A DNA stretch of 64,000 nucleotides. Source: Lentisphaeria bacterium. GTDB taxonomy: Bacteria; Verrucomicrobiota; Lentisphaeria; Victivallales; UBA1829. The notes beneath the pieces are model-generated. The model made no database searches and was not told where the DNA came from. It saw only the letters and a list, made by a program, of their open reading frames with translations. Made by a program: the position numbers and the translations under genes. The stretch is taken from contig JAGBXB010000073.1 in NCBI GenBank assembly GCA_017629515.1, forward strand, positions 2,939-66,938. Reading direction: 5' to 3'. Of this stretch, positions 21,210 through 50,653 are shown piece by piece (position 1 is the stretch's first letter; every line of letters begins with the position of its first letter).

Positions 21210-21934
21210 GCCACAATTTTACGCTGATCGAACTTCTTGTTGTTATTGCGATCATCGCTATTCTTGCAAGTATGCTCCTTCCTGCGTTGAATCGGGCAAG
21301 GGATGTGGCAAAGGCCGTGAACTGTAAAAGCAACCTCAAACAGATCGGTTATACTTTGCGTCTGTATGCGGATACCTACAAGGGCTGGGTTCCCAACTAC
21401 TCTTCCGCACATCATTTTCTTATTGTCGCAGTGGAACATGTGCATGGAATCAACCTGTTGGCGGAATGGAACTCCAGACCGAAGAAAAGTCTTGCCTACG
21501 GCTGTCCCGGCATCGACCGCCCCCGCTTGACAAGTTCCGCATACTGGGGCCGAAACCATTATGGAACATTGCTTGTCACCACTCTTTCCGACTGGCTTTC
21601 CAAAGCATATTACCTTTCTACGGATACCAGTGGGCAGAGACCCTATTTCTGGAACTTTGACAGAGTACCCGATCCCCAGAAGAGGATTTATTACGGTGAC
21701 AGTCAGGCGTATGCGAATACTGAACAGACTGAATTTGCTCAGTCTGCCTACTTCCTTACCAAATTTACCACCAGCACCACAGGGACAGGTAAACCTCTGT
21801 TAAGTTTGCGCCATCAGGATGCCACCAATGTTGGATTTGTGGATGCCCATGTGGAAACCTTGAAAAAGGTGGATCTGAAAACAAAATTCAATTACAGTGC
21901 TGCATGGGTAAGAAATATCCCCATGGAATTCTGA
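21194..21934 (+). CDS. Prepilin-type N-terminal cleavage/methylation-domain (DUF1559, H-X9-DG) pseudopilin-like protein.
   Basis: '[37 protein letters not shown]' and the C-terminal '[16 protein letters not shown]'. Start set at the ATG after SD 'aaggagg'. Confidence 0.8.
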
Positions 21935-21975
21935 AAAATATATCTGAATCATACTGAAACGAAAGGAAAACACTG

Positions 21976-22722
21976 ATGAAACAAAAAAACTTTACTCTTA
22001 TCGAATTGCTGGTGGTTATTGCGATCATAGCCATTCTTGCCAGTATGCTTCTTCCCGCCTTGAACCGGGCAAGGGATACGGCAAAGGCGATCGGCTGCAA
22101 GAGCAATCTCAAACAACTTGGTTATGTAGCAAGATTATATGCCGATACCTATACAGGCTGGGTCCCTAATTATTCTTCAGCCCACCATTTTATTGATACA
22201 ATGGTATATTTTGTAACTGGCAAAGTCATTCGTACCGGAGCCCCCACCAATCCCAAAGACAGTGCTGCTTACGGTTGTCCCGGAATGGAAAGACCTCCCG
22301 TTTTCACCAATGAATGGGGGCTGAATCATTACGGATGTTGGCTTATCACCCCCGCCGCTGACGCAGATGCAAAATACAGATGGCTTGTCAATGGTATAAA
22401 ATTTAATTCATCACATACCTCAACGAGTTATTTCTGGAATCTTGACCGCTATCCCAAACCTGCGGAAAGAATTTTTTCCGGCGATACATTGAAGACTTAT
22501 GCTATTTCTGACAGAAATAACAGACCCAAAGCGCAGGCACCATTTTTCCAGAACCGTTTCAATGCCTCATACCTTGACCGCCCGCTGTTGGATCTGCGTC
22601 ATGCGGACAGTGCCAATGTTGTGTTCATGGATGGTCATGTGGCAAATCCCAAAAAACTGGATCTGAAAGTAACCTATCTTTTCAGAGCTGCCTGGGTCAG
22701 AGGGACTGCTGTGGAATTCTGA
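21976..22722 (+). CDS. Prepilin-type (DUF1559) pseudopilin-like protein, member of the tandem triplet.
   Basis: '[34 protein letters not shown]' and '[16 protein letters not shown]' (H-X9-DG). Confidence 0.8.
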
Positions 22723-22761
22723 AAAAATATATCTGAACCATACTGAAGCAAAAGGAAAACA

Positions 22762-23511
22762 TTGATGAAACAAAAAAACTTTACTCTTATTGAGTTGCTG
22801 GTAGTCATTGCAATTATCGCTATTCTTGCAAGTATGCTTCTTCCTGCGTTGAACCGGGCAAGGGATATGGCAAAGGCAATCAGCTGCAAAAGCAATCTCA
22901 AACAGTTGGGCTATACCGTAAGATTGTATGCTGACAGCAACAAAGGCTGGACACCCAATTACCTTGTATCTTATCACTGGCTTGATTTTCTTTCCCAGCA
23001 GGTTCACGGCAAAATCATCCGTACCGGAGCCCCCACCAATCCCAAGGACAGTGCCGCTTACGGTTGTCCCGGAATGGAAAGACCTCCTGTTTACACAAAT
23101 GAATGGGGGATGAATCATTACGGAAGCTGGCTTGTTACTCCCGGTTCTGACGGGTTCAAACAATACAGATGGCTTTCCCAGACGAAACAGTTTTCCACAG
23201 ACTCAAGTGCTTCTTATTTCTGGAACCTTGACCGCTATCCCAAACCTGCGGAAAGAATTTATTACGGCGATACCCAGCAGACTTATGAGATTACTGCCAG
23301 AAATAACAGAACCAAAGCACAGGTGGGATTTTTTAAAGACAGTATCAATGCTTCTTCCTACCCCAACAATCCGCTGCTGCATCTGCGTCATCTGGACGCC
23401 GCCAATGTGGGATTTATGGATGGTCATGTGGCAAGTCCCAAAAAACTGGATCTGAAAGTAACCTATCTTTTCAGAGCTGCCTGGGTGAGAGAAGTTCCTG
23501 TATCATTCTGA
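22762..23511 (+). CDS. Prepilin-type (DUF1559) pseudopilin-like protein, member of the tandem triplet.
   Basis: '[34 protein letters not shown]' and '[16 protein letters not shown]'. The intergenic spacer is nearly identical to the one before the 21976 gene. Confidence 0.8.
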
Positions 23512-23564: not shown

Positions 23565-26500
23565 ATGAAGAAGATTTTTGCTTCATTGTTTCTTGTTTTC
23601 GCTGTGCTTTTTACAGTGCAGGGAGCAAAAGATGATGGACTTGTAGTCCATTACAAATTCGATGAGGGCGAAGGAAATATCGCCAGAGATTCCTCCGGCA
23701 ACGGGCTGGATGCCACTCTCGTTGAAACCACATGGGAAAAATTCGGCGTGCAGGGAAAAGCCGTCAGACTTGACCACACCAAAAAGAAAGCCCATATCCA
23801 GCTTCCCAAGAGTGATAAACTCATACTGGAAAAAGAGATGACGCTTTCTCTTTACTTCAAAGTGGAAAATTTTTACAAAGGACTTACACTTTTTTCCAGC
23901 AGTAACTATTATCTGGGCTGGACAAGTGTTGTTTACAGAAGTTTCATTACTTTCTCCTCCATTGACAGAAACAACCGTAATGATAAACGCAACGGCGGCC
24001 TCTGCCGGGTCTCTCTCGCTGCCGGAACAGGGCCTCTTGCCCCCTTCCACAATGTAGTCTTTACCGTCGGCCCCGATCCGGACAATAAAGACCAGAATAT
24101 TTTGAATATCTATCTGGACGGGAAAAAACTTTCTCACAAAGGAGTAAGCAATTTCCCCATGCGCGCCCCCATCCGTGTGAATAAACGCGTTCCCCTCACC
24201 ATCGGGCATTTCACCTCTGCGGAAGGTCAGTGGTTCAGCGGGATCATTGATGAAGTAAAGATCTACAACAGAGTCCTTTCTGCCGATGAGATCGCAAAAA
24301 ATCACAGAAGAACCACGACCCAGAGTACAGAAGGTCCCGGCGAAAAAGTCCAACTTAAAAAAGTGGATTTCAAACCTCTGAAAAATAAAAAGGTCGCCCT
24401 TTACTCTCCTCTGAAAGTTACCAAAGCACAACTTGCCGGAAGTCGGGATGAAGGGAAAGACTCCCCCCGCCATGTTGCCGCATGGGGTACTCCCATCCGC
24501 AGTGTGGAATGGTTCAAAGAACAGGCGGAAAAACTCGGCTGTAAAGTAACCATCCTTGATGATGCCCGCCTTTCCGATAAAAAATATCTTGTCAAAAAGA
24601 ACTTTGATACCCTGATCCTTCCTGCCGGTGTCATCCCCTTTGAAGCGGAAGAATCCATTTTTGAATACCTCGTTACCGGAGGAAATCTTTTCACCCCCAC
24701 CGTTCTGCCCAGCGTCTATAAAAGATATGCAGATGGTTCTTTCGGTAAATTCAGAGGTAACTACCTGAAAAACCATACAAGAGGCTGGTACAGTCCCTTC
24801 CTTTTGCGTACTACTCCCGGTGCAAACGGTTTGCGCTGGTGGGTGGCTCCTCTGGGACTGAATCCCGGTGTGGTGGATATTACAGGCGACCTCATGGCTG
24901 CCGTTGTAAAGAACCCCAATCCCAAAAGAAGAGTGGCTTACCGCCCTCTGGACAGATGGGGCAAGATCCCCGGTCTTGACGGTGCATACGGCGACGGCAA
25001 CAACTATGCTCTGGGTGCTGATGTTCAGGTGGAACTCTACCGGGAACGTACAGGGATAGGTTCCGGCTTTGCCGTCTACCGTTATTACAACAACCTTATC
25101 TTCGGTTCCACACTTGCCCAGCTGGGATCCATCGGGGAAAGTCTGATCAAAGGCAAAGACGGGGATAAATATTTCAAAGCAGTCATGTATCTTCTGGAAA
25201 GCAAACTGCCCGGAGAACAGAATACAACTTATTACAGAAATGCTGTGGATCTGCACAAAGAATGGAGTGAACTGGGTTTCACCTATACTTCCGCCGTTGC
25301 CGCATTGCGCGATGCTTCTTTCTATGCTTATCTTTCCGGCAGGGAATGGAAAAGCTTTGCAGAAAAACTTACAGAAATGGAAAAAGAATTCAATGCTTTG
25401 AACGGGGAACGCAAAACCCAGAAACAGCTTCTTTTCTCCGGAAAATATGCCGAATGCAGCAAATGCACCGCAGAGTTGCTTGCCAAAGTAAGAGTTTCTG
25501 CCGGAAAATATGCTTCCTGTATCGAAGAAGGCAGAAAAGCTGTTGCTGATGCCAAAGTGCCTGCCAAAGTGCCTGTCAAACACAAATACGGTACGATCCC
25601 CTCCATCGCTTCCACTGTCATCCCCACCAACCTTTCCATGTTCCGGGGAAGATTGTTTGATTCCATCCGCAGGATCGGTTCCAATATTTACAGCGGTATG
25701 ATAGATGACTGGTATGCAGAAGATCCCCAGGTACAGAAAAAACTTAAAGGACTTCTCCGTGACCACAAGTTTGTTTATGCCGCCGGTCCCCGCGTCCTTG
25801 TCCGCGGCGGGCATTTCAACCCTGCCAACGGTACTGTAAAAGACGCTCCGGAAGTGATCTATCCGGAAAAAAACCTTTCCAAATATCTGGAAAATGTTTT
25901 CAAAGTCTGGAAATGGAAAGGCAAAGAACAGTTCCGTATCGGAACGGCCGATGAAACCGGTATCGGATTGAACTACTGGGGTTCCCAGGCAAAACGGGAT
26001 CTGCAGAACCATCTGAAAAAATACTACAATAACGATGTGGCGGCAATGAACGCGCATTGCGGCACTTCCTATAAATCTTTCGATGAAGTTGCTGTCCCCG
26101 TCCGTAAACCGGAAACCTCTGCACAGCATGCCATCTGGGAACACTTCAACAAATGTCGTGAAGCCTATCTGGAACGCATTTACAGCAATTTCCGCAAACT
26201 TGTGAGAAAATACAATACCGATATCGATGTATTCGCTCTTCCCTCCACAGGCGGATCTCAGCTCCCCCTGTACGGACTGAACTACTACAATGCCACCAAA
26301 TATCAGGATGTGAGCGGTATCGACGGTACCTGCTGTTCCATTGATAAAGAGTGGCTCTTCCTTGACCTCACCACCAAACGTTATCTGACAAGTGAATGGG
26401 GAAAACTCTATCAGGAAGCCACCATGCAGGCTGTCAACGGTCAGATGTGGCAGGAACTTGCCGGCGGAGCCTGGGGCGCAGAACAGCATGTCTGGTGCTT

Positions 26501-29069
26501 CGGGGATGATTCCGTAAACTTTGTTGACCCTGTAAACTGCGCAACCATCTATGGAGCAGTTCTCCATATGGCTCTCAAAGATATGCGCAAACTGGATCAT
26601 CTCATCCTTGACGGGAAACGCTCTGTGCCGGAAGTGGGGATCCTTTTCTCCCAGGCAAGCCGTATCCACGATCAGGGCTGGGGCTGGGCCGGGGGAAGCA
26701 CCACTTCCAACCACATCCTTGCTGTCAGTTACTATTACAAACATTTCCTTTCCTGGGGCAGATCTGCAAGAGTTTTTGCAGAAGAAGCACTTGTGGAAGG
26801 AAATATGCCTCCTGTAAAAGTCCTTATCGTTCCCCAGGCGGAATTCCTTTCTGAAAAAGTGCAGAAAGCCCTTCTGGATTATGTGAAGAAAGGCGGAAAA
26901 CTCATTATCGAAGGCAGAGCGGGCAAGTTTGATGAATTCGGCAGAAAATCCGATCTCATCTTCCGTACAGCCGGTGTGATCCCTGCTTTCTCCGATGCAA
27001 AAAATGCCACGATGGAAAAGAGTGTTCTGGGCATCCAGAAAGATGATTCCATCTACTCTCCCGCAGGCAAAGGCAAAGTTCTTGCCTCCTATGATAAGGA
27101 AAATGCCGCCATTCTGACCAATACATTCGGCAAAGGCTCCATTACCTTTATGGGGATCGGCCTGGGCTGCTACAAATACAGCAGTTTTGCCCCCGTACTG
27201 GAAAGAGTACTGCGTTCCCTTGATGTGGATGCAAGATTCAAAGTTTCCGATGATTCCCTCGTTCTGCGTGAATGGGAATACAATGGGGATACCTATCTTC
27301 TTGTCACCGGCAACAGTGATAAGTGGGACATGAAAGAGGTTGCCGTAGGCATCCGCGGAAAAGTAACGGTGGAAGATTATCTTTTCGGCAAAAATGCCAA
27401 AACCTCTTATAAAGACGGTTACACCACATTCAAATCACTCTTTGCCAACGGCGGAAGAGTTTTCCGTATCAAAGGGAAAATCGCTCCTGCCGGACGCCTT
27501 GCCGGAAAAGCAGACTTTAAACTTGTCAGCAGTTCCGGTGCCAAAGACGATGTAAAGAAATTCGTTCTCCCCTACAAAGGCAATATTTACAGTGACACCC
27601 CGCTGAAAAACGGCGATTATACTTTCAGTGCCGCCATTCTTGGTTCCGGGGCAAACAACCGTATCGGAAACGCCTTCCTCACTGTTTCCGGCAACGGCGA
27701 ATCCCAGAGAAAACGCCTTGTGGAAGGGGAAACCATCTTCTTCCGTATGCGGAAAAAGATTTTCTCTGTGAAATGCACACAGAACTTCTTTATGTATCCT
27801 TTCTATACGGTCGTGGAAGTCAAAGAGGTGAAAGAAGTCCCCGCTTCCAAAGGGGCGAAAGTACAGCGTAGAGGAAAGAATATCACTCTTTCCAATGATC
27901 TGCTTTCCCTTACTTTCAGCAGTTTGGGCGCAGAAATGATCTCCTTTCTGCCCCTTGCGGAAAGAGAGGATATCGTAAAGGTAAGAAAAGCCGGAGTGAT
28001 CTCCGGCGCAGCCCCCGGGCCTTTCTATAATGTGAACTTCAATGTCAAAACCGCAAAGAGCAAAGAGGGCGTTGTTGCAGATTTCTCCCTGCCTTCCCCT
28101 GTTGCCAATAAACTCATCACCCAGAAAGCTACCCTCCTTTCCGATGCGGCAGTATGCAAACTGGATTTCGTCTGTACGAACAAAGCGATCAATCCTGCCA
28201 ATTTCGATGTGCGTTACCGTCCCGGTCTGCAAGTGGGCGGCGCGGCGGATAACGGAGATGCTTTCTTCGTCCAGAAAAAGGATGGTTCTGTGCAGCATGT
28301 CATGTTCCGCGGTCAGAATACCGGAAAAAGATATACGGACAGCGGCGATTGGGCGGCTGTGGTGGATACCCAGCAGAAAGTGGCATGGATCAATGTGATC
28401 ACCAACGGGAACAAGGGGGAATATTTCTACTTGTGGGAAGCCTCCGACTTTTACAATATGGAACTTTTCGGCCCTGTGAAGAAAGTTCTTTCCGGGGAAT
28501 CCATCACATTGAACATGGCGATCATGTATATACACGGTCTTACCGGAGTGAGTGCGGTCAATAATCTGAATGCAGCTTTTCTTGTGATCCCGGATGTGGT
28601 CAATCAGAAAAAAGCATTTGCTCCTGTACTGGAAATTGCCACTGCAAGCAGCAAACTTACCTCCGTCAGCGTGAATTCCGCTCTTTACAAGGACGGCAGA
28701 AAGGTCATGGATTTTTCCGATGCAAAGGATAAGATCGCCTTTGATCTGCCTGCCGCATTCTCTTTGAAAACGGCAAAAAGTGTCAAAGACCTTGCAGACG
28801 GAGAATATACGATAAAAGTAAATATTCTTTCCGCAAACGGGAATATTTCCTGTGAAAGAAAAGTAAAGTTTGCCGGAAGGATCATTGAAAAACTTTCTGC
28901 GGACTGTAATAGCCTTGCGAAAAAACTTGATGAACTGGAAAAGAAAATTTCCACAGATGCCAGATTTGCGCTTCTTGTGAAACTGGGCGAATTGAAAAAA
29001 GCCATTTCCAGCAACAATCTGGATGCGGCTTCTAAAATCGCGGCAGAATTGAAAACAGAAATGAAATAA
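23565..29069 (+). CDS. Giant (1834 aa) secreted protein: signal peptide, N-terminal LamG/concanavalin-like domain, glycoside-hydrolase-like core with a GH42-type trimerisation-like module, and a C-terminal coiled coil.
   Basis: Signal 'MKKIFASLFLVFAVLFTVQGA'. LamG-like 'LVVHYKFDEGEGNIARDSSGNGLDATLVE...AVRLD'. A segment 'KVLIVPQAEFLSEKVQKALLDYVKKGGKLIIEG' resembles the GH42 trimerisation domain. The 1053-aa minus-strand ORF is antisense. Confidence 0.5.
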   Translation: MKKIFASLFLVFAVLFTVQGAKDDGLVVHYKFDEGEGNIARDSSGNGLDATLVETTWEKFGVQGKAVRLDHTKKKAHIQLPKSDKLILEKEMTLSLYFKVENFYKGLTLFSSSNYYLGWTSVVYRSFITFSSIDRNNRNDKRNGGLCRVSLAAGTGPLAPFHNVVFTVGPDPDNKDQNILNIYLDGKKLSHKGVSNFPMRAPIRVNKRVPLTIGHFTSAEGQWFSGIIDEVKIYNRVLSADEIAKNHRRTTTQSTEGPGEKVQLKKVDFKPLKNKKVALYSPLKVTKAQLAGSRDEGKDSPRHVAAWGTPIRSVEWFKEQAEKLGCKVTILDDARLSDKKYLVKKNFDTLILPAGVIPFEAEESIFEYLVTGGNLFTPTVLPSVYKRYADGSFGKFRGNYLKNHTRGWYSPFLLRTTPGANGLRWWVAPLGLNPGVVDITGDLMAAVVKNPNPKRRVAYRPLDRWGKIPGLDGAYGDGNNYALGADVQVELYRERTGIGSGFAVYRYYNNLIFGSTLAQLGSIGESLIKGKDGDKYFKAVMYLLESKLPGEQNTTYYRNAVDLHKEWSELGFTYTSAVAALRDASFYAYLSGREWKSFAEKLTEMEKEFNALNGERKTQKQLLFSGKYAECSKCTAELLAKVRVSAGKYASCIEEGRKAVADAKVPAKVPVKHKYGTIPSIASTVIPTNLSMFRGRLFDSIRRIGSNIYSGMIDDWYAEDPQVQKKLKGLLRDHKFVYAAGPRVLVRGGHFNPANGTVKDAPEVIYPEKNLSKYLENVFKVWKWKGKEQFRIGTADETGIGLNYWGSQAKRDLQNHLKKYYNNDVAAMNAHCGTSYKSFDEVAVPVRKPETSAQHAIWEHFNKCREAYLERIYSNFRKLVRKYNTDIDVFALPSTGGSQLPLYGLNYYNATKYQDVSGIDGTCCSIDKEWLFLDLTTKRYLTSEWGKLYQEATMQAVNGQMWQELAGGAWGAEQHVWCFGDDSVNFVDPVNCATIYGAVLHMALKDMRKLDHLILDGKRSVPEVGILFSQASRIHDQGWGWAGGSTTSNHILAVSYYYKHFLSWGRSARVFAEEALVEGNMPPVKVLIVPQAEFLSEKVQKALLDYVKKGGKLIIEGRAGKFDEFGRKSDLIFRTAGVIPAFSDAKNATMEKSVLGIQKDDSIYSPAGKGKVLASYDKENAAILTNTFGKGSITFMGIGLGCYKYSSFAPVLERVLRSLDVDARFKVSDDSLVLREWEYNGDTYLLVTGNSDKWDMKEVAVGIRGKVTVEDYLFGKNAKTSYKDGYTTFKSLFANGGRVFRIKGKIAPAGRLAGKADFKLVSSSGAKDDVKKFVLPYKGNIYSDTPLKNGDYTFSAAILGSGANNRIGNAFLTVSGNGESQRKRLVEGETIFFRMRKKIFSVKCTQNFFMYPFYTVVEVKEVKEVPASKGAKVQRRGKNITLSNDLLSLTFSSLGAEMISFLPLAEREDIVKVRKAGVISGAAPGPFYNVNFNVKTAKSKEGVVADFSLPSPVANKLITQKATLLSDAAVCKLDFVCTNKAINPANFDVRYRPGLQVGGAADNGDAFFVQKKDGSVQHVMFRGQNTGKRYTDSGDWAAVVDTQQKVAWINVITNGNKGEYFYLWEASDFYNMELFGPVKKVLSGESITLNMAIMYIHGLTGVSAVNNLNAAFLVIPDVVNQKKAFAPVLEIATASSKLTSVSVNSALYKDGRKVMDFSDAKDKIAFDLPAAFSLKTAKSVKDLADGEYTIKVNILSANGNISCERKVKFAGRIIEKLSADCNSLAKKLDELEKKISTDARFALLVKLGELKKAISSNNLDAASKIAAELKTEMK

Positions 29070-41685: not shown

Positions 41686-41820
41686 CGTCGCATAATATAC
41701 ATTATGTGAAGTAAAAAAGAAAAATTTTGAGCTTGAAACAGAAAAATTAAAAAATAAAAGAGTGTAAAAAATAAAAAAAATAAACTCAAAGGAGGCAACA
41801 TAATGTATATTATGCGACGT
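41686..41820 (+). promoter_or_regulatory. Conserved 5' leader in which a 22-nt perfect inverted repeat pairs an upstream site with the start-codon region of the pseudopilin gene. Second copy of the element at 21077-21209.
   Basis: 41685-41706 'acgtcgcataatatacattatg' is the exact reverse complement of 41799-41820 'cataatgtatattatgcgacgt'. Spacer 92 nt with SD 'aaggagg'. Confidence 0.6.
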
Positions 41821-42552
41821 AACAACTTTACTTTGATCGAATTATTGGTGGTTATTGCTATCATCGCCATTCTTGCCGGGATGCTCCTCCCCGCCCTTGC
41901 CAGAGCAAGAAAAACAGCCCAGGGGATCACCTGTACAAGCAATTTGAAACAGGTTTATTATTTCCATCTTGTTTATGCAGATATGTCCAAAGACTGGGCG
42001 TATGCCGGGTATTATAATGCCCACAGAAAATATACTACCTATATCAGTGCTTACAGTAAAACAAATCTGGGGATCGCCCCCTGGACAAATGTACTGGGAA
42101 ATGATACAAAGTTATTATCCTGCCCGTTGGCAAGATCCTATTTTCCTACTGCCGCCAATGTAAACAGCAACTATTTTCCCTGCGGAAATCTGGCAAGAGG
42201 ATTGAACAATGCTGCCGATAAAGTCCGTAACTGGATCGGTTCCGATCCTGACGGAAAGTATGTTGGCGGTTACTTTGCCAACGGCTCCTATTTCAAAGTT
42301 TCTTCTGCAAAAAGACCCTCCATTCTCCATTTCAGCAACTGTACCAAAGACAGTAATACCAGTGGTTATATGTGGGGTTTTCACGGAAACAAGGGCAAAG
42401 CGGTCAATATGCTCTGGGTTTCCGGTCATGTAAGTCAGTTTGACTTCAAAGATAAATACCACAGCACCTACGCCTGGGAGAAAGGCATCATGCGTTCAAA
42501 CTTTTACAGCTGTGAAGCCTATCCTTGCCGTGGTGACAGTACCAGAAAATAA
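41803..42552 (+). CDS. Prepilin-type (DUF1559-like) pseudopilin-like protein.
   Basis: '[37 protein letters not shown]' and a C-terminal '[11 protein letters not shown]' variant of H-X9-DG. Confidence 0.75.
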
Positions 42553-42576: not shown

Positions 42577-45501
42577 ATGAAAAAAATGAAAAAAACAATT
42601 TTATTGTTTGCTGTATTTGCCATATTTGCCGGAATCCTGCTTCCCTGCACAGGAGCGGAATTTGCTCTTATAAAAGATGGCAAAAGTGCCTGTGTTATCG
42701 TTAAACCTGCAAAGGATGACAGGGTAACAGATTTTGCAGCAACGGAACTTGCTGAATTTCTCGGCAGGATCTCCAAAGGGGAAAAACCCGCTATCATCAA
42801 AGGGAAAAACAGTACCAAACTTTACCCCGTTATATTCAATGTGGATGCCAAAGCCGAAACCTCCGGTGAGGGATACATTATTTCCGTAAATAAAAACGCT
42901 GTCACCATTACCTCCAAACACCCCAGAGGGATCATGTATGGCGTATATGCCCTTTTGAAAGATTCCACCGGGATCCGCTGGGTATATCCCGGGGCTGACG
43001 GGGAATATTTTAAAGTACAGAAGACCATCAAAGTCAAAGAAGGGGTGAAGAAAGCAGAACCCTCTTTCCCCTACCGCGGCATTTCTTTCCATGCCATGGG
43101 CGTGACAAGTCCTGTAAAAGATACCCGCAACTGGATGGTACGCAACAATCTTCAACTCCATGCCTATGATTTCCAGCTTTCCGGAAAATATAAAGATCTG
43201 GCAAAGATCCTTGCGGACAGGGGTGCCTATCTGGAAATCAATCCCGGATTTTCCAATATTTTTTCCGGCACCAGTTACGCCAAGGCGGAAAAAGTCATGG
43301 CGGAATGGTTCAAAAAAGAGAGCGATAAAGAACTCTTCCCCCTTATCAACGGTAAACGCACCTTCCTGAAAGGTCAGGCATATCAGCCCTGTACCAGTCA
43401 TCCGGAAACCATCCGCCGTTCCACAGAAGGTTTGATCAATTACTGTGTCAAACCCACGATAGGCAGAGACGGCGTCGTTCAGATCTACAACAACGACGGT
43501 ACCGGCTGGTGCCAGTGCGACAACTGTAAAAAGCTGGACAGTGCATACGATAAAAAAATGGGTTATGTTTCCGACCGTTTCTGGCATTATGTCCAGACTA
43601 TCGGCAAAAAAGCATTGGAAAAATATCCGGATGCAAAGATCAACGGTGTGGGCTATCAGAACTTTGAAGCTCCCCCCTCCTTCCAGATCGACAAACGATT
43701 CGGTGCTACTTTAAGTTTCAACCGCCTCTGTTACCGTCATAAAGTGGATGATCCCGACTGTCTCCTCAACCCCAAATTCCTGAACTTTTACAAAGGCTGG
43801 AAGAAACAGGGTATCTACATTATCGGCAGAGAAGAAATTTCCGGAGCAGGTACCAATTTCCAGCCTGTCAGCCCCAATTATGTTTATCTTCTCAAATTCT
43901 ATAAGAAAATGGGATTTGCCGGAAACTTTATTGCCATTGCTCCTCCGGATGGTAATTACAATCCCCGCCGCAAGAGTGACGGTCTGGTTCAGTGGAGAAG
44001 CATGTGGCAGACCATGTATTTTCATGCCATCTACACATGGAATATCAATGCAGACTACAATAAAGAATGGGAAGAAATGAACTCCCTCTACTATGGAAAA
44101 GCATGGAACGGGGGAATGAGAGATTTCTATAAACTTCTCTGGGAAGCCTCCTCCACAACTCCCGGCTGTTTCGGTCACGGATACAGTGCCCCTCTGGGAA
44201 GATGTCTTGACAAACCCATGGTACAGGAAAAACTCAATAAATATCTTGCAGCAGCTTTGAAGGCAGCGGAAAAAGATCCGGACAAAAGAGCATTGGCTCA
44301 TGTGAAATTTGACGCAAAGCGTTTCAAAGACACCTGGGAATACCAGAGAAAACACTATCTGGCAAACTATCGTGAACTGCGTGCTTACGAAAAGACCTCT
44401 CCCATTAAAATCGATGGCGTTCTGGATGATAAAGACTGGAAAAATGCCGACATCATCACCAATTTCAAAAATAATTCAAATGTAGGCGTACTTGCAGAAC
44501 AGCAGACTTTTGCAAGAGTGGTATATGAACCCGAATACTTCTATTTTGCCGCAGAAATGGTGGAGCCTGCCATGGATAAGGTATATAATACCATTACCAA
44601 AAGGGATGGGCCGGTATGGGAGGATAATACTCTGGAACTCTTCCTCACCCACCCCGATCTCGGCGGAACATTCTTCCACTTTATCTTCAATACTGATGGC
44701 GTTTTCTATGACAGAAAAGTCTATCCCGGAGAAAAAGGGGACTCTTCTTTCAACTCCTCCTTACAGGTAAAGACCCGCCGTCTTGCCGACCGCTGGGTAC
44801 TGGAAGCAAAGATCCCCACAGCGGAACTGGGGGAAAAATGCTTTACAGGACAGAGCTGGAAGATGAATGTCATGCGGGCAAGGAAACTAATTGATACCAA
44901 TGGGGAAGGCTCCACCCTTACCGGCGGTAAACCCTTTGATACCGCAACTTTCCTTTCCATTGCCTTTTCCGGCAAACGCTTTGTCAATACTGCCAAATAT
45001 GAAGGGGATTCCCGGCAATGGAAGAATGGTTCCTTAAATGAACCTGCCAAAAAGATCGCCAATTATATGAAAGGTTTGAACATTGAAAATAATGTTCTGC
45101 CTTCCTCCTGGGATTTCAAACATCTGACGAAAAAGAATAATGCCCTTGTTTCATGGCGGCAATTCCCGGAAAGCAGCAATTGGTATATACATCTGAAAAA
45201 CAGTGCCATGATGAATGGACTTTATGCCAGGGGGGAAAAGTACCGGGTCAATCTTAAATACCGGGGCAAGGGAAGTGCCACATTCTATGTATTGCGGTAT
45301 CCGGCAAAAAAAGGGATCAAACTGAAAAATCCCGGAAGTAAGATCGTACACAAAATCCAGGCAGATACCAAAGACTGGACTTATGCAAAATTTGACTTTG
45401 CCCAGCCGGGAGAAGCTGAAAAGGAAAGACAGGTCTTCGGTATCTGGGTAAATGGGGAAGTGGATTTTGATGAAGTCTATCTTGCTCCGGTAAAGAAGTA
45501 A
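42577..45501 (+). CDS. Secreted DUF4838-like protein with a C-terminal CBM9/DOMON-like domain, paralogue of 543..3323.
   Basis: Signal peptide. 'AEFALIKDGKSACVIVKPAKDDRVTDFAATELAEFLGRISKGEKP' is a typical DUF4838 N-terminus. The CBM9-like segment reads 'IDGVLDDKDWKNADII..'. Confidence 0.55.
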   Translation: MKKMKKTILLFAVFAIFAGILLPCTGAEFALIKDGKSACVIVKPAKDDRVTDFAATELAEFLGRISKGEKPAIIKGKNSTKLYPVIFNVDAKAETSGEGYIISVNKNAVTITSKHPRGIMYGVYALLKDSTGIRWVYPGADGEYFKVQKTIKVKEGVKKAEPSFPYRGISFHAMGVTSPVKDTRNWMVRNNLQLHAYDFQLSGKYKDLAKILADRGAYLEINPGFSNIFSGTSYAKAEKVMAEWFKKESDKELFPLINGKRTFLKGQAYQPCTSHPETIRRSTEGLINYCVKPTIGRDGVVQIYNNDGTGWCQCDNCKKLDSAYDKKMGYVSDRFWHYVQTIGKKALEKYPDAKINGVGYQNFEAPPSFQIDKRFGATLSFNRLCYRHKVDDPDCLLNPKFLNFYKGWKKQGIYIIGREEISGAGTNFQPVSPNYVYLLKFYKKMGFAGNFIAIAPPDGNYNPRRKSDGLVQWRSMWQTMYFHAIYTWNINADYNKEWEEMNSLYYGKAWNGGMRDFYKLLWEASSTTPGCFGHGYSAPLGRCLDKPMVQEKLNKYLAAALKAAEKDPDKRALAHVKFDAKRFKDTWEYQRKHYLANYRELRAYEKTSPIKIDGVLDDKDWKNADIITNFKNNSNVGVLAEQQTFARVVYEPEYFYFAAEMVEPAMDKVYNTITKRDGPVWEDNTLELFLTHPDLGGTFFHFIFNTDGVFYDRKVYPGEKGDSSFNSSLQVKTRRLADRWVLEAKIPTAELGEKCFTGQSWKMNVMRARKLIDTNGEGSTLTGGKPFDTATFLSIAFSGKRFVNTAKYEGDSRQWKNGSLNEPAKKIANYMKGLNIENNVLPSSWDFKHLTKKNNALVSWRQFPESSNWYIHLKNSAMMNGLYARGEKYRVNLKYRGKGSATFYVLRYPAKKGIKLKNPGSKIVHKIQADTKDWTYAKFDFAQPGEAEKERQVFGIWVNGEVDFDEVYLAPVKK

Positions 45502-45590: not shown

Positions 45591-46499
45591 TTATGCCATT
45601 GCCAGTTTTTTCAAAACTTCTTCATTGCAGGGTACTTTAATGGAGTATTTTTCCCCAAGTTTGCATAAAGTACCCGCAAAAAGGTCTACTTCCGTAGGAC
45701 GGCAGGAAAGAATATCCTGCAACATGGAAGTTTTGGCTTCTTCCGGCATGGAAAGAATGACATCCATGGCACTTTGCAGCATTCCTTCCGTACCATTGAC
45801 CCCCATGGCTTCCGCCACTCTCACCGCTTCTTCCATAAGGCGGGCAGCAAAGTCCAGCATACAGGGATTCTTCTGCAATGTGCCGTAATCCGCTCTGAAT
45901 ACCGCAGAAGCCTGATTGACCCCCACATTCAATACATATTTTTTCCATAACGCGCTTTTCATATCTGCGGGGATCTCATAAGAGATATTTGCCCGTGTGA
46001 AAAGTTCTGCTATTTTTTCCACTTCCGAGGAAATGGTATAATTTTCCTCTTTCCCGAAATAGAGTTTGCCTACACCATCATGGCGGACTCGTGTCCCCTC
46101 CCGGATACTGGCATGACCCAGAAAGAAGCCGTACAGGGCTTTGGTATGGGGGAAACGCTTTTGCAGTATTTCCGGAGCGGTGATACCGTTGAGAAGGGGC
46201 AGAATAAGGGTCTCTTTTCCTGCAAAGGGAGCGATCATTTCCAGCGCAGAGGAAAACCCGTTGGATTTGGTGGCAATAAGGATAAGATCGGCTTTTTCCC
46301 CCTGTGCCTGACCGGAGGTGATCCAGGAAAAATCCAATTCTTTTCCATTGAGGAAAACTCCATTTTTCCTGTACCGTGCCATCCTTTTTTCATCCACAAG
46401 GATCGAAAGACGCACTCCCGGACAGGAGCGTAATGCCGCCGCATATAAAGTACCTATGGCTCCAAGTCCGATAAGGAGGACATTTTCTATCTTTTTCAT
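45591..46499 (-). CDS. panE: 2-dehydropantoate 2-reductase (ketopantoate reductase).
   Basis: 'KIENVLLIGLGAIGTLYAAAL' Rossmann motif and ApbA C-terminal domain features. Confidence 0.75.
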   Translation of the reverse strand: MKKIENVLLIGLGAIGTLYAAALRSCPGVRLSILVDEKRMARYRKNGVFLNGKELDFSWITSGQAQGEKADLILIATKSNGFSSALEMIAPFAGKETLILPLLNGITAPEILQKRFPHTKALYGFFLGHASIREGTRVRHDGVGKLYFGKEENYTISSEVEKIAELFTRANISYEIPADMKSALWKKYVLNVGVNQASAVFRADYGTLQKNPCMLDFAARLMEEAVRVAEAMGVNGTEGMLQSAMDVILSMPEEAKTSMLQDILSCRPTEVDLFAGTLCKLGEKYSIKVPCNEEVLKKLAMA

Positions 46500-46537: not shown

Positions 46538-47176
46538 TTATTTTTTTTCCTGTTTCTGCCGGGGAGCGTTTTGCTTGGAAGTATTCTTCCTGTTTTCCCT
46601 GTTTTTCCCTGCGGAAACTTTATCTATTTTCTTTTCCACCGGAACGGGGACAAGTTTTTCCAAAACTTTTTTCTGCTGATCTCCGCGGAAATAGGAAAAA
46701 GTGAAAATATTTCCGGCAGTAAGGATATTGGAGGCATATTTTCTTGCCAGTGCCGTTCTTTCCTGTTTGAGTTCCAGTGTATCTCCGGAAAAAAGATTCG
46801 GCAGAATGGAAAATGCACAGAAAATCAAAAGGGTGGCAAGGAGCATACCGGAAAAAAAGCCGCAGACAAAATTAAAGGATTTTTCCAGTTTTTCCGGAAG
46901 ATCATCCAAAAAATCCTCCTCCCCTGTGACGGAATAGAAGATTTTGTGGCAGAGGATCATCAAAAGGATGAAAAGCAGAACAGTAACGCCCCCACCTTTC
47001 AAACTTTCCGGGATCTCTTTGAAATCTTTGAGAAAAGAAGCGATTTCCGGCGTGCAAAGTATGGAAATATAAGAAGAAAAAAGGATGCTTGCAAGAAAGA
47101 CCCAGTTTCCGAGAACTGTATTTTTTACGGCTGTTACACCCCCCAGAAAACCTGCGGCGATTATTCCCCAGAACAT
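46538..47176 (-). CDS. CvpA-like four-TM membrane protein with a Lys-rich C-terminal tail.
   Basis: Four hydrophobic helices at CvpA-like spacing and a basic tail 'KNRENRKNTSKQNAPRQKQEKK'. The start lies 20 nt after the GspE-like stop. Confidence 0.4.
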   Translation of the reverse strand: MFWGIIAAGFLGGVTAVKNTVLGNWVFLASILFSSYISILCTPEIASFLKDFKEIPESLKGGGVTVLLFILLMILCHKIFYSVTGEEDFLDDLPEKLEKSFNFVCGFFSGMLLATLLIFCAFSILPNLFSGDTLELKQERTALARKYASNILTAGNIFTFSYFRGDQQKKVLEKLVPVPVEKKIDKVSAGKNRENRKNTSKQNAPRQKQEKK

Positions 47177-47196: not shown

Positions 47197-48687
47197 TTAA
47201 AAATTGACCGTTGCCCGTTCATATTCTTCCCAGGAGGTTTCTCCGTGGATGACGTAACTCATGATCCGGGAACCCAATGCCCCTGCGCCTATGGTGGAAT
47301 CCACATACTCTTTTACATCGGAAATGGTACTTCCCTGCTGTTCCAGAACACGGCGCAACCCCTCATCCATGACCAATACCTCAAATACCGCGATCCTGCC
47401 TTTATAACCGGTCTGACCGCATTTTGCACAGCCGCAGGGCTGTTTGATGGCATCGAAAGGAATATTGTATTGCCGGCAGTAAGCCTGTTGTACACTGTTG
47501 AGTTCCGCCGGCTTTTTGCAATGGGGGCAGAGGCGGCGTATCAATCTCTGGGATATACTCATTTGAAGAGCGGCGGCAATATTGCGCAACGGTATGCCCA
47601 GATCGGTGAGACGCACGATGGTACCGATATTATCGTTACTGTGCAAAGTGGCTATGATCAGGTGTCCTGTCTGTGCCGCCTGCGCCGCAACTCCGGCAGT
47701 TTCCTCATCCCGGATCTCCCCAAGACAGATGATATCCGGATTCTGACGCAAAGAGTTGCGCAGTACCGACGCAAAAGTGATACCGGCTTTGGAATTTACT
47801 TCGATTTGACTGATGTTGGGGATCACCCTTTCCACAGGGTCTTCAATGGAAAGAACATTTTTCAATCCGTAGTCAATACTGCCCAACATGGAGTATAATG
47901 TGGAGGTTTTTCCGCTTCCGGTAGGTCCGCAGACAAGAATCATGCCCGAGGGCAGTTTGATGGCTGCATCCAGTTTGGCAAACTGACTTTTGGAAAGTCC
48001 CAGATCGGTAAGTTTTCTGTTGCCGCTTTCCGAAGCGATCACCCTTATTGTGACCTTTTCCCCGCCGTAAACCCCTACTGTGGCAACACGGAATGCCACT
48101 GGATTGTGTTTATATGTGGCGTTGAACGCTCCGTCCTGGGGGCGGCGTCTTTCTGTAATATCCATACTGGCAAAGACTTTAAACATACTGATAACAGGCA
48201 GCGCCTCCTGTTCTGTAAGAGTGCTGTGCCCCCTTATGGAACCATCCACACGGAACCGGACAAAGTAGGAACCGTTTTTAGGGTCGATGAAAATATCACT
48301 TGTTTTGGTTTCCAGAGCATCCTGAATGATCTTTTTAACAGATTGTGCGCCCTCTTCATTACCGTTCTTTTCCAGCATATCTCTTCCGGCTTCATCCACA
48401 ATGGTCAGAGAATTAACAGCCTGTTTCTTTTTGTTCATCCCCCCTCCGGCAACAGCTTCCGGCATGAAAACAGACTTGAAAAAATCTCTCTTTTCCCATA
48501 CAAGAAATGTTGCCGCTGCGATAAATCCCAGAGGCAGGGAAAAAAGAATGATATAAGGTTTTGCTTCTGCAGGCAGTTGCAATTTTTTCCTTTTGGAAAA
48601 AGATTTCATTGCCCAGAGTCCGGCAAGGAGCCAGCAGAAGAAGATGACTACTCCAATAAAATTTACCGGTATGGTATCAAGTGACAT
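47197..48687 (-). CDS. GspE/PilB-family secretion ATPase with an N-terminal two-helix membrane anchor.
   Basis: Walker A 'VCGPTGSGKTSTL', Asp box 'SIEDPVE', Walker B / His box 'NPDIICLGEIRDEETAGVAAQAAQTGHLIIATLHSND', and a tetracysteine motif 'CPHCKK...CAKCGQTG'. The N-terminal 65 aa hold two hydrophobic helices. Confidence 0.75.
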   Translation of the reverse strand: MSLDTIPVNFIGVVIFFCWLLAGLWAMKSFSKRKKLQLPAEAKPYIILFSLPLGFIAAATFLVWEKRDFFKSVFMPEAVAGGGMNKKKQAVNSLTIVDEAGRDMLEKNGNEEGAQSVKKIIQDALETKTSDIFIDPKNGSYFVRFRVDGSIRGHSTLTEQEALPVISMFKVFASMDITERRRPQDGAFNATYKHNPVAFRVATVGVYGGEKVTIRVIASESGNRKLTDLGLSKSQFAKLDAAIKLPSGMILVCGPTGSGKTSTLYSMLGSIDYGLKNVLSIEDPVERVIPNISQIEVNSKAGITFASVLRNSLRQNPDIICLGEIRDEETAGVAAQAAQTGHLIIATLHSNDNIGTIVRLTDLGIPLRNIAAALQMSISQRLIRRLCPHCKKPAELNSVQQAYCRQYNIPFDAIKQPCGCAKCGQTGYKGRIAVFEVLVMDEGLRRVLEQQGSTISDVKEYVDSTIGAGALGSRIMSYVIHGETSWEEYERATVNF

Positions 48688-48848
48688 GAAAAAATCCTTT
48701 TTTTAAACAGCTGTCTTCAAAGATACTTTACTGCATTCCCCATTAATATACTTAATAAAAAGGGAATTTTCAATAGTTTATTATGGATTTTTTACAATAT
48801 CATGTTTTTCAATACCTCTTCCGCCGGGATTTTACAGCAAAATCCTCT

Positions 48849-49601
48849 TTACAACTGCAAACCTCCTGCAATGGGGATCTCCGCTCCTGTGATGTAGGAA
48901 GCATTTTCCGAAGCAAGGAAAGAAATGAGAAAAGCACACTCTTCTGCATTACCGAAACGGCGCATGGGTATCTTTTCTTTCAGATTTTCCGCAAAGGCGG
49001 CATCGCTTAGTACTGCCGCGTTGCGGTCGGTGGTGATGACTCCCGGAAGAACCGTATTTACCGTGATTTGGAAAGGGGCGTTTTCCATTGCGGCAGTTTT
49101 CGCCACATTCATAAGAGCCGCCTTTGTAGAGCCGTAAAGAGCCAGTCTGGAAGCGGGTTTTGCTCCATTGATACTGCCCACAAAAATAATGCGTCCATAG
49201 TTCTTTTTCCGCATATACGGTACAAGAGACTGTATGAGAAGGAAAGAAGATTCCACATTGGTACGGTACATTTTTGAAAACTCTTCTTCTGAAAAATTTT
49301 CCAGCCCTGTATAACTCTGTACGGAAGCATTGAGTACAAGTATATCCGGAACGAGATCTCTTTCCTCCAATTCCCGGATAAATCTTTTCACCTCTTCCAT
49401 ATTGCCGAAGTCGGCAGTGATTTTTTCCGCCTTTTCTCCGGCTTCTGCCACAGCAGAAAGCAGTTGGGCTGTTTCTTTCGTTCCGTGAAAGATGACACGC
49501 GCTCCCAGAGAAGCAAGAAGCAGACCGGTAGCACGCCCTATTCCTCTGCTGGAACCTGTAACAAGGGCGGTTTTTCCCTTTAAGTCAATAGAAAAATTCA
49601 T
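48849..49601 (-). CDS. SDR-family oxidoreductase (FabG/KduD-like).
   Basis: 'LKGKTALVTGSSRGIGRATG' and the catalytic 'YGSTKAAL'. Confidence 0.85.
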   Translation of the reverse strand: MNFSIDLKGKTALVTGSSRGIGRATGLLLASLGARVIFHGTKETAQLLSAVAEAGEKAEKITADFGNMEEVKRFIRELEERDLVPDILVLNASVQSYTGLENFSEEEFSKMYRTNVESSFLLIQSLVPYMRKKNYGRIIFVGSINGAKPASRLALYGSTKAALMNVAKTAAMENAPFQITVNTVLPGVITTDRNAAVLSDAAFAENLKEKIPMRRFGNAEECAFLISFLASENASYITGAEIPIAGGLQL

Positions 49602-49864: not shown

Positions 49865-50653
49865 TCAGAAATATCCGCCTTTATCAATGATCTCGGAAAT
49901 GGTATCCCCCTGACGCACCCAGGAGAAAATATCCACTTCATTGCGTTCGATACCTTCGGCACGCAGCAGTACTTCATAAGCGATCTCGCGGGGGATGCAG
50001 AGGACGCCGTCAATGTCACCGAAAATAATATCCCCGGGACGGACAGTCACTTTCCCGATCTTTACAGGAACCTGATAATGGGTGATCATACATCTTCCCA
50101 GAGAACCGTTGGAGGTGCGGTACTTATAGAATACGGGGAACTTCTGTTCCAGGATCTGTTTGGTATCCCGGATCCCGCCGGCGATCACCGCTCCCCGGAT
50201 GCCTTTGGAAATGGCAGTGGCGGTCATGACCCCGCCCCAGAGGGAGGCTTCCACATCGTTGGAGGTATCCCAGACCACCACGCCTTCCGGTTTGAAATCA
50301 TCCAGCATCTGCGCCCGGAAAGTCATTTCTCCTTCGATCATCACATTGGGCGCACTTTTTACGGTGAATGCTTCTCCGCAGACGGTCATTTCATCCCGCA
50401 GAGGCATGATGTCGGAGGGGAGATTCTGGTCGAGAAGAGTAAATTCCCGCATTACATCATTGATACAGCCTGTATAAAGTTTTTCATAGCGTTCGCAAAG
50501 TTCTTTGATGGGAATGGGCAGTTCGCAGTTGGGGATCCTCTGGCGGGTCGCAATAAGTTTGTCCAGTTTCATAAGTCCGGCTTCTTTGGCTTTTTCCCGC
50601 ATGTCTTTGAGTGAAGGCATAATGTTCTCCTTTTGTTTTTTATTTGTTGTCAA
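49865..50653 (-). CDS. RraA-family protein (4-hydroxy-4-methyl-2-oxoglutarate / 2-keto-3-deoxy-acid aldolase-like).
   Basis: 'ASLWGGVMTATAISKGIRGAVIAGGIRD' and 'GDIIFGDIDGVLCIP' RraA-fold signatures. Confidence 0.65.
   Translation of the reverse strand: MTTNKKQKENIMPSLKDMREKAKEAGLMKLDKLIATRQRIPNCELPIPIKELCERYEKLYTGCINDVMREFTLLDQNLPSDIMPLRDEMTVCGEAFTVKSAPNVMIEGEMTFRAQMLDDFKPEGVVVWDTSNDVEASLWGGVMTATAISKGIRGAVIAGGIRDTKQILEQKFPVFYKYRTSNGSLGRCMITHYQVPVKIGKVTVRPGDIIFGDIDGVLCIPREIAYEVLLRAEGIERNEVDIFSWVRQGDTISEIIDKGGYF

Follow-up and report, generated by a model that had tools for sequence, protein, structure and literature searches.

The minus strand of the 64-kb window, by which we mean the whole stretch of DNA analysed, carries an open reading frame for a GspE/PilB-family ATPase, followed by a gene for a CvpA-family membrane protein and then by panE (Table 1). 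Residues 114 to 491 of the ATPase match the Pfam T2SSE family with an E value of 1.3e-106. A first-pass annotation of the sequence had listed the hallmark motifs of secretion ATPases, and the Walker A and B motifs, the Asp and His boxes and the tetracysteine could all be located in an intact core; the catalytic residues and Cys387, Cys390, Cys420 and Cys423 are invariant in a family alignment (n = 38). By its sequence, the product is a catalytically intact, extension-type hexameric motor ATPase composed of an N2 domain, an ATPase domain and a zinc tetracysteine.

Table 1. Features of the ATPase/CvpA-like locus, with positions in the window.
Feature	Position	Strand	Remarks
Promoter-like site	48745..48773	-	TTGAAA, 17 nt spacer, TATATT; 10/12 matches; ~58 nt upstream of ATG1; consensus match only
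Membrane-anchored GspE/PilB-family ATPase gene	47197..48687	-	496 aa + stop; ATG start; AAGGA ribosome-binding site 7 nt before ATG
Helix H1, aa 10-32	48592..48660	-	hydrophobic core aa 10-27; W19, G23 nearly invariant; AlphaFold2, alignment
Basic H1-H2 loop, KRKKLQLPAE	48562..48591	-	probably cytoplasmic, from charge counts
Helix H2, aa 43-65	48493..48561	-	LPLG; G54 nearly invariant; AlphaFold2, alignment; probably non-spanning
Variable basic linker, aa 66-113	48349..48492	-	internal M75, M84; alignment, AlphaFold2
N2 domain, aa ~114-230	47998..48348	-	Pfam match, motifs, AlphaFold2
C-terminal ATPase domain, aa 231-496	47200..47997	-	motif location, alignment
Walker A, GPTGSGKT, aa 254-261	47905-47928	-	
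Asp box, SIEDPVE, aa 280-286	47830-47850	-	
Walker B, DIICLGEIRD, aa 318-327	47707-47736	-	
His box, GHLIIATLHSND, aa 341-352	47632-47667	-	
Tetracysteine, CPHC aa 387-390 and CAKC aa 420-423	47518-47529 and 47419-47430	-	
CvpA-family membrane partner gene	46538..47176	-	212 aa; starts 20 nt after ATPase stop; own AAAGGAAA ribosome-binding site
panE (2-dehydropantoate 2-reductase)	45591..46499	-	38 nt downstream of CvpA-like gene

The NCBIfam GspE and PilB models align to the protein only from about residues 95 to 103 onward. Against the two GspE models (PRK10436 and TIGR02533, in that order) it scores 371.5 bits (cut-off 617) and 356.3 bits (cut-off 630.25), and these enter the alignment from profile positions 73 and 99, leaving the N1E portion unmatched. 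Scores with the PilB model TIGR02538 (366.4 bits, cut-off 675.65) and the TfpB model NF053534 (316 bits) also lie below the respective cut-offs. A PilT/PilU identity was rejected: the score with TIGR01420 is 154 bits, under the cut-off of 319, and both N2 and the tetracysteine are present, whereas retraction ATPases have about 350 residues and carry neither an N-terminal extension nor a tetracysteine. Residues 1 to 95, a hydrophobic segment, matched no domain model among the Pfam and NCBIfam profiles, and there was no match to an MshEN/GSPII_E_N domain at the N-terminus.

Within this segment, AlphaFold2 places the two hydrophobic stretches (residues 10 to 27 and 45 to 64) in helices H1 (residues 10 to 32) and H2 (residues 43 to 65), with a pLDDT of ∼77 to 91 for the block; a low-confidence segment lies further on, at residues 79 to 90 inside the linker. 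The hydrophobic N-terminus is kept in 148 non-redundant homologues, and the best 120 homologues align over 98 to 100% of the query at identities down to 43%. Trp19, Gly23 and Gly54 are nearly invariant across the anchor (n = 38). A Gly-Pro pair occurs in H2 in 127 of the 148 sequences (the window protein instead reads LPLG), at a relative position of 0.52 within the 21-residue uncharged run of the helix. A profile of the anchor, searched among 1.84 billion representative proteins, returned 81 matches, all of them from this family. On the profile and alignment evidence, a built-in membrane anchor has replaced the soluble N1 docking domain.

Charge counts and natural fusions both bear on the topology of this anchor. 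Across 125 non-redundant short forms the H1-H2 loop holds 1.85 Lys + Arg per 8 residues versus 0.10 in the N-terminal tail. Natural long forms place a signal peptide and a periplasmic domain before H1, and at four loci H1 is preceded by a Zn-ribbon, a Pkinase domain (E value of 2e-45), a transmembrane segment and a P/A/K linker; distant relatives have H1 plus a 40-residue double helix. The natural fusions impose a parity and therefore argue for one membrane crossing only within the anchor. We infer that H1 is the single spanning helix, with a periplasmic N-terminus and a cytoplasmic basic loop, and that H2, with its central Gly-Pro, does not span the membrane and may be re-entrant or interfacial. 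In the AlphaFold2 model, H2 is a straight helix of 23 residues that packs in a transmembrane-like manner, so that the re-entrant reading derives from the parity and charge arguments and not from the model. Of the two-helix membrane anchor in the first-pass annotation, the two conserved hydrophobic helices thus stand, but the fusion parity speaks against a transmembrane hairpin.

Genetic knowledge of the CvpA family dates from the work on colicin V, and we know of no established biochemical function for it, nor of a canonical cvpA gene tied to a secretion ATPase (in E. coli it forms the cvpA-purF operon). The window protein matches Colicin_V (PF02674) below threshold (13.4 bits, E value of 0.078, cut-off 29.3); 25 of 40 partner orthologues match at E ≤ 0.01, the best at 2e-11, and one (locus L168) carries a precomputed PF02674 match. 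There is also a weak match to the MarP N-terminal domain (NF033740). AlphaFold2 predicts long helices at residues 2 to 16, 21 to 49, 57 to 84 and 95 to 124, and the hydrophobic pattern, that of a four-TM inner-membrane protein, is conserved across the 40 sequences. The partner thus resembles CvpA and the MarP N-terminal four-TM domain in its four long helices and appears to be a divergent member, distinguished by its sub-threshold score, by two further conserved helices and by a disordered, K/E/P-rich low-complexity tail. Only Pro94, Gly110 and Pro126 are conserved in the family (n = 40), and none of its conserved intramembrane residues in these 40 sequences is charged or polar. No solved structural relative of the model was found.

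The proposal that the ATPase shares an operon with a CvpA-like protein was borne out well beyond the window. A CvpA-family four-TM gene follows the ATPase gene in 70 of 70 related loci that have enough downstream DNA, a count made up of 62 of 65 genome loci (the three exceptions being contig ends) and 8 of 8 further planctomycete-type loci; no such gene was present at ∼90 outgroup GspE/PilB loci (0 of 19 in a smaller count). The two genes are separated by a median of 7 nt and by at most 35 nt in 61 of 62 cases, with 10 overlaps, and are probably translationally coupled. In a neighbour-joining tree, the 68 paired ATPases form a clade with no unpaired intruder. No other neighbour is conserved across the compared loci; panE is possibly co-transcribed with the pair in the window, but only close relatives share this neighbourhood and panE is therefore not part of the module. 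These gene-order and tree data show that the ATPase and CvpA-like genes form an obligate two-gene module, monophyletic and distributed over the Lentisphaerota and Planctomycetota, which has apparently not been described before.

Searches of the 64-kb window with GspF and GspD queries (phmmer) detected no GspF/PilC or secretin, in agreement with the earlier remark that platform and secretin genes are missing nearby. Neither the window nor any of 61 Lentisphaerota loci has gspF, gspD and pseudopilin genes beside the ATPase as its system; GspF/PilC is absent within 10 kb of the pair in all 61, GspD and prepilin peptidase were likewise not found near the pair in these loci, and no pilC, pilM-Q or pilD lies near the ATPase gene. 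At about 55 of the 70 loci the pair stands alone amid unrelated housekeeping genes. The label 'orphan' suits the window but not the family, a phylum-wide module that sometimes sits within type IV filament clusters.

Two such settings occur in relatives. At 12 of the 61 Lentisphaerota loci, all from Victivallaceae, a PilT-like retraction ATPase gene (338 bits to PDB ID: 2EWV) begins 3 to 32 nt after the CvpA-like gene, followed in 3 of the 12 by CpaB and FHA-T2SSE genes; the window lacks this PilT-like gene. In a Pirellulales lineage, a complete gspE-F-G-H-I-J-K-L-M-C-D operon ends with the pair, placed 19 nt behind gspD; this operon also encodes a canonical MshEN+T2SSE GspE (36% identical to the anchored paralogue), a GspF and a GspL-like protein of 477 residues with one TM segment. 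A stripped-down machine without a platform, as initially suggested, gains no support from this one T2SS-adjacent lineage. Family loci totalling 1.16 Mb contain 12 copies of the strict PVC-type pilin N-terminal motif, as against none in outgroup loci totalling 1.10 Mb; the window has 4. The idea that the ATPase serves as motor for the pseudopilins gains indirect support from the PilT-like and T2SS neighbours in relatives.

Textbook GspE/PilB-family ATPases are soluble motors that GspL or PilM recruits to the membrane. The window ATPase shares with GspE/EpsE (PDB ID: 1P9R, 4KSR and 4PHT) the N2 and C-terminal ATPase domains, the Walker motifs, the Asp and His boxes and the zinc tetracysteine, scoring 247 bits with EpsE and 36% identity with a canonical planctomycete GspE. 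Unlike GspE, it scores under the NCBIfam equivalog cut-offs, has a predicted N-out TM helix and a non-spanning hydrophobic helix in place of the GspL-binding N1E domain, and goes always with a CvpA-like gene, whereas GspE goes with gspF. The best matches among solved structures are PilB/PilF proteins (PDB ID: 5OIU, 5TSG and 3JC8), with 278 bits for Thermus PilF. Like pilB, the anchored ATPase gene shares an operon with a PilT-like ATPase gene in the 12 relatives above; however, PilB/PilF carry MshEN/GSPII_E_N and are not membrane-integrated. GspL and PilM-PilN, which are bitopic and tether the ATPase hexamer to the membrane, are functional analogues only: the tether of the window ATPase is its own polypeptide, and its predicted N-out/C-in orientation is opposite to theirs. 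The closest parallel in logic, not in family membership, is TfpB of Acinetobacter baylyi, a PilB-like paralogue and second extension motor beside the primary one (PMC8213720), as in the Pirellulales operon, where the anchored ATPase coexists with canonical GspE in the single T2SS operon seen. TfpB, however, is a soluble protein that lacks a CvpA-like partner.

On balance, we favour a reading in which the protein tethers itself to the membrane and drives a type IV filament system as an extension-type motor, partnered in the membrane by the CvpA-like protein. With its N-terminus in the periplasm, H1 would cross the membrane once to a cytoplasmic basic loop, and H2, with its central Gly-Pro, would dip into the inner leaflet without crossing. 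With one spanning and one dipping helix per subunit, six anchors would hold the hexamer flat on the membrane with no GspL/PilM tether. The gene neighbourhoods of relatives suggest that the module is part of a type IV filament apparatus, either T2SS or pilus-like, the T2SS-operon link being that of one lineage, Pirellulales. The anchored ATPase would be a motor second or alternative to canonical GspE, although the Pirellulales operon has its own canonical GspE and a GspL-like protein, so that the need for a second motor there is not evident. The motor would polymerise prepilin-type proteins, and the CvpA-like partner would couple the ATPase to the filament base. A more speculative extension, to which we give little weight, is that the pair by itself makes up a minimal type IV filament motor, in which a CvpA-family protein replaces GspF/PilC as the platform, dedicated to the expanded PVC-type (DUF1559/H-X9-DG) prepilin-like proteins and with Ser/Thr-kinase and FHA inputs wired into the motor in some lineages. 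A platform role is hinted at by the Victivallaceae gene order (ATPase, CvpA-like, PilT), since this puts the CvpA-like gene where pilC normally sits and no T2SSF gene is nearby.

The solitary loci invite a different view, namely that the two proteins form a membrane machine of their own that has nothing to do with pilins, such as an ATP-driven exporter or a device for envelope homeostasis, with the ATPase energising the CvpA-like protein. This would echo the genetic evidence that ties CvpA to colicin V production and to bile resistance, and it fits the Colicin_V/CvpA and weak MarP matches of the partner, the pair as sole conserved unit among housekeeping genes, and the missing GspF, GspD and prepilin peptidase genes. 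We nevertheless consider it unlikely: to our knowledge, all characterised ATPases of the GspE/PilB branch with N2 and a tetracysteine act on type IV filaments, the relatives provide two independent gene-cluster ties to filament machinery, and a membrane family whose conserved intramembrane residues are neither charged nor polar does not resemble a transporter or an enzyme.

Classical T2SSs do not have a PilT-like retraction ATPase, and the Victivallaceae pairing with one therefore counts against the anchored ATPase being simply the only T2SS GspE of Lentisphaerota, its N1-bearing form lost, the gsp genes scattered and the anchor replacing docking to GspL. Such a history seems quite improbable to us, even though the core scores as GspE-like (371 bits to PRK10436), the Lentisphaerota genes are evidently dispersed and a T2SS has been reported in the related Kiritimatiella (PMC5148204). 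The only T2SS-adjacent genome also has a canonical GspE, and coexistence at 36% identity implies that the anchored family is an old paralogue and not a modified orthologue.

Translation from ATG1 is supported by the N-terminus being kept down to 43% identity, by the replacement of both Met75 and Met84 by Val in a 92%-identical homologue (P0001), so that the internal ATGs are not conserved, and by the AAGGA and promoter-like sites upstream, the latter compatible in position with transcription beginning before ATG1 and no more frequent in the region than shuffled expectation. Very improbable, finally, is an annotation artefact in which a soluble, N1-less ATPase starts at Met84, preceded by GGAGGGGGG with a strong Shine-Dalgarno-like GGAGG 4 nt before its ATG, and the hydrophobic stretch is an untranslated leader, because the 83 upstream codons are conserved as protein in the 148 sequences, with Trp19, Gly23 and Gly54 behaving as invariant, and the long forms add domains in frame further upstream.

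A phylum-wide, membrane-integrated GspE/PilB clade with an invariant CvpA-family partner alters the textbook picture of these ATPases as soluble motors, and the anchored ATPase offers a natural test case for how a hexamer can be joined to the membrane when the tether is not a protein of its own. Fusions with kinase, FHA and periplasmic domains suggest that signalling acts directly on the motor, and they double as topology reporters. Lentisphaerota and Planctomycetota encode greatly expanded sets of prepilin-type proteins, from tens to hundreds, and we know of no machinery described as handling them; the module is a concrete candidate. The pairing is also the first strong clue from genomic context to what the CvpA family does and, if the CvpA-like protein does act as a platform, would give that family its first mechanistic role.

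The window ORF on the minus strand encodes, as the first-pass annotation had described, a 496-aa protein with an ATG start, and the hallmark motifs of secretion ATPases named there (Walker A, Asp and His boxes, tetracysteine) were all located, together with Walker B. Residues 114 to 491 match Pfam T2SSE (E = 1.3e-106), and the catalytic residues and four cysteines are invariant in a family alignment of 38 sequences. The NCBIfam models for GspE, PilB, TfpB, and ComGA align only from about residue 95 to 118 onward, and the protein scores under the equivalog cut-off of each (371.5 bits versus 617 for GspE). The top solved-structure match is Thermus PilF (278 bits), the other best matches being Myxococcus and Geobacter PilB and Vibrio EpsE (247 bits); their alignments all begin at residue ∼101 to 115. 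Two uncharged stretches (residues 10–27 and 45–64) lie within the first 65 residues. Based on the motifs, the points at which the model alignments begin and these hydrophobic stretches, the protein is an intact N2 + CTD secretion ATPase with a hydrophobic module in place of the N1 domain.

The 212-aa downstream ORF, previously described as CvpA-like, begins 20 nt past the ATPase stop, the spacing claimed for it, and has its own AAAGGAAA site. Taken alone, the window protein misses Pfam Colicin_V (E = 0.078), and the assignment stands at family level: PF02674 matches 25 of 40 orthologs at E ≤ 0.01 (best 2e-11), one ortholog has a weak match to MarP's 4-TM domain, and by these profile matches the partner is a divergent CvpA. 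Because only P94, G110, and P126 are conserved, it looks more like a scaffold than an enzyme or channel. Partners at L023:11478-12527 and L024:11449-12546 have, beyond a low-complexity tail, an additional conserved domain (∼150 aa) at the C-terminus. In every related locus fetched, a homologous gene comes next after the ATPase: on the same strand in 62 of 65 family loci on genome contigs (at most 802 nt of contig remain in the three lacking it), and in 8/8 further planctomycete-type loci from metagenomes and assemblies. The gap has a median of 7 nt and is at most 35 nt in 61 of the 62 loci; in 10 the genes overlap. Among outgroup GspE/PilB loci of the genome scan, a CvpA-like neighbor was found only at L083, which is placed in the wider membrane-anchored clade. 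No other neighboring gene family is conserved across the family loci, and panE lies downstream in close relatives only.

The family was found in Victivallales, Victivallaceae, Victivallis vadensis, and further Lentisphaeria, and a sister group in Planctomycetota (Planctomycetaceae, Pirellulales, and a Blastopirellula MAG). A neighbor-joining tree built from 161 ATPase-core sequences groups the pair-bearing ATPases in one clean clade of 68 members, comprising sister clades of 60 Lentisphaerota and 8 planctomycete-type sequences. A wider clade of 75 includes more distant ATPases, likewise with a CvpA-like gene next downstream, whose N-termini contain helix 1 and a ∼40-aa hydrophobic stretch equivalent to two helices. 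The distribution of the module is monophyletic, in two PVC phyla.

The earlier observation that no GspF/PilC platform or secretin is nearby was confirmed for the window and extends to 10 kb around the pair in every Lentisphaerota locus. The pair might be a pilin-independent membrane machine, a reading that we consider unlikely; two lineage-specific neighborhoods connect the module with type IV filament machinery. One is seen in Victivallaceae: at 12 of the 61 Lentisphaerota loci, the CvpA-like gene is followed after 3 to 32 nt by a gene for a 729-aa protein, the C-terminal half of which is a strong PilT homolog (338 bits to PDB 2EWV); its N-terminal half (∼370 aa) contains a second P-loop. The order extension-type ATPase, CvpA-like, PilT is similar to pilB-pilC-pilT, but with the CvpA-like gene in the place of the platform gene. 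At L047, L052, and L053, RcpC/CpaB, an FHA-T2SSE (CpaF-like) ATPase, and a PMT_2 glycosyltransferase follow the PilT-like gene. In one Pirellulales lineage, represented by dozens of contigs, gspD is followed 19 nt later by the pair, giving the order gspE-F-G-H-I-J-K-L-M-C-D-anchored ATPase-CvpA-like. This operon also encodes a GspL-like bitopic protein: the 477-aa ORF at the GspL position has GspL architecture and no Pfam, NCBIfam, or PDB match. We rejected the anchored ATPase as the T2SS motor in Pirellulales, as upstream extension of the locus revealed a canonical MshEN+T2SSE GspE at the head of the operon. Since this GspE shares the operon and is only 36% identical to the anchored paralog, the latter is a second, ancient, co-transcribed ATPase and not a replacement. 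The idea that Lentisphaerota have no GspE besides the anchored ATPase seems to us more doubtful again than a pilin-independent machine. A small FHA-domain protein is encoded directly upstream of the anchored ATPase in two planctomycete-type loci (L091:9212-9718 and L168:9307-9825), and L154:9518-11236 encodes a related soluble ATPase with an N-terminally fused FHA domain and no CvpA-like partner.

The window contains four PVC-type prepilin-like genes, called on their N-termini, PF07963, and a faint DUF1559 match, each adjoining a very large secreted protein; two related loci, L001 and L002, hold comparable 'regulator, pilin-like, giant enzyme' cassettes. The strict form of this N-terminus, which all four window genes have, was counted 12 times across 1.16 Mb of family loci and not once across 1.10 Mb of outgroup loci. 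The SDR and RraA-like aldolase genes are syntenic in the closest relatives (L004:88-1853; L005:5323-7088), as are alpha-amylase, GH10, MR_MLE, and IclR genes farther upstream, a set in keeping with the genome of a polysaccharide-degrading member of the Lentisphaeria from gut or rumen.

AAGGA lies 7 nt upstream of ATG1 and a promoter-like TTGAAA-17-TATATT ∼58 nt upstream. An internal start at M84, a possibility raised in the first-pass annotation, was considered because the Shine-Dalgarno-like GGAGGGGGG precedes this codon, yet conservation rejects it. The 120 best homologs, at identities down to 43%, cover 98 to 100% of the query and all possess both hydrophobic helices; W19, G23, and G54 are nearly invariant, whereas M75 and M84 are not kept, each being Val in P0001, a 92% identical homolog. 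AlphaFold2, given the family alignment, predicts helices at residues 10–32 and 43–65 (block pLDDT ∼77–91) and a disordered linker at 79–90. A profile of the first 112 residues retrieved only 81 of 1.84 billion representative proteins, all N-termini of such ATPases, their fragments, or longer forms, and neither Pfam nor NCBIfam has a model for the anchor. Helix conservation, the near-invariant residues, the non-conserved internal methionines, and profile specificity together show that the anchor is a real, selected, family-specific protein module; an annotation artefact is highly improbable.

By fusion parity, the two-helix anchor originally proposed cannot be a plain transmembrane hairpin. Four Victivallaceae loci encode, in a single ORF, a zinc ribbon, a Ser/Thr kinase (Pfam Pkinase, E = 2e-45), a TM helix, a P/A/K-rich linker of ∼300 aa, helix 1, a loop, helix 2, and the ATPase; P0206 (993 aa) resembles a further such fusion. 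Kinase and ATPase both need the cytoplasm, so the chain must cross the membrane an even number of times between them, which requires that one, and only one, of helices 1 and 2 be membrane-spanning. The choice between the two is indicated by charge counts in 125 non-redundant short forms: the N-tail (mean 5.4 aa) carries 0.10 K+R (zero in 93% of sequences), the interhelix loop 1.85 per 8 residues, and the segment past helix 2 3.3 per 15 residues. The uncharged run that forms helix 2 is 21 residues long, and 127 of 148 sequences have Gly-Pro at its center. In several long forms that are independent of one another, helix 1 is preceded by a Sec-type signal peptide and a 60 to 250-aa domain, and the three-helix anchors of distant relatives are compatible with the same N-out orientation. 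In the most economical model, the N-terminus would be outside, helix 1 would span the membrane, the loop and the ATPase would lie inside, and helix 2 would form a re-entrant or interfacial hairpin. We only infer this topology, because AlphaFold2, which models no membrane, predicts a straight helix 2. In six long forms (P0047, P0063, P0066, and P0067, ∼720 aa; P0104 and P0107, ∼686 aa), the extracytoplasmic domain comprises 200 to 250 aa without a Pfam match and is of two unrelated types; periplasmic add-ons were therefore gained more than once. The kinase fusion suggests direct phospho-signaling control of the motor.

Features of the anchored ATPase, its window surroundings, and related loci
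Feature	Location	Strand	Remarks
Anchored ATPase	47197-48687	-	
CvpA-like partner	46538-47176	-	
Walker A	ATPase aa 254-261		
Asp box	ATPase aa 280-286		
Walker B	ATPase aa 318-327		
His box	ATPase aa 341-352		
Tetracysteine	ATPase aa 387-390, 420-423		CPHC, CAKC
Three tandem prepilin-like genes	21137-23511	+	directly upstream of 1834-aa secreted protein (23565-29069)
One prepilin-like gene	41803-42552	+	directly upstream of 974-aa DUF4838/GH20b/CBM9 protein (42577-45501)
SDR	48849-49601	-	upstream of ATPase
RraA-like aldolase	49865-50653	-	upstream of ATPase
PilT-like 729-aa gene	L033:2272-4461		directly after CvpA-like gene; equivalents in L036, L040, L042, L043, L047, L048, L049, L052, L053, L056, L060
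Complete Xps-order T2SS operon	L170:6947-20420 with L061:1-12136		two GspE-family ATPases; Pirellulales MAG, CAZYQN010000004.1
Kinase-ATPase fusion ORFs	L036:3364-6507, L041:7257-10286, L042:3406-7248, L043:409-3972		Victivallaceae MAGs, 1009-1280 aa
Signal-peptide long forms	P0047/63/66/67, P0104/107, P0116-118		

The family thus combines an intact PilB/GspE-type ATPase, a family-specific hydrophobic N-terminus, and an obligate CvpA-family neighbor. With an N-out single-span anchor and a non-spanning helix, which are well supported as inferences go, the hexamer would be tethered through its own six anchors rather than through GspL or PilM. On balance, we favor the module as a self-tethered, extension-type type IV filament motor, in which the CvpA-like protein would be the membrane coupling partner and whose substrates would be the prepilin-type proteins that are expanded in these bacteria. 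The anchored motor may work beside a canonical GspE in Pirellulales and with the PilT-like retraction ATPase in Victivallaceae. Full-text literature searches turned up neither a membrane-integrated GspE/PilB nor a pairing of CvpA with a secretion ATPase. The motor family is already known; its anchoring, its partner, and the regulatory fusions appear to be new.
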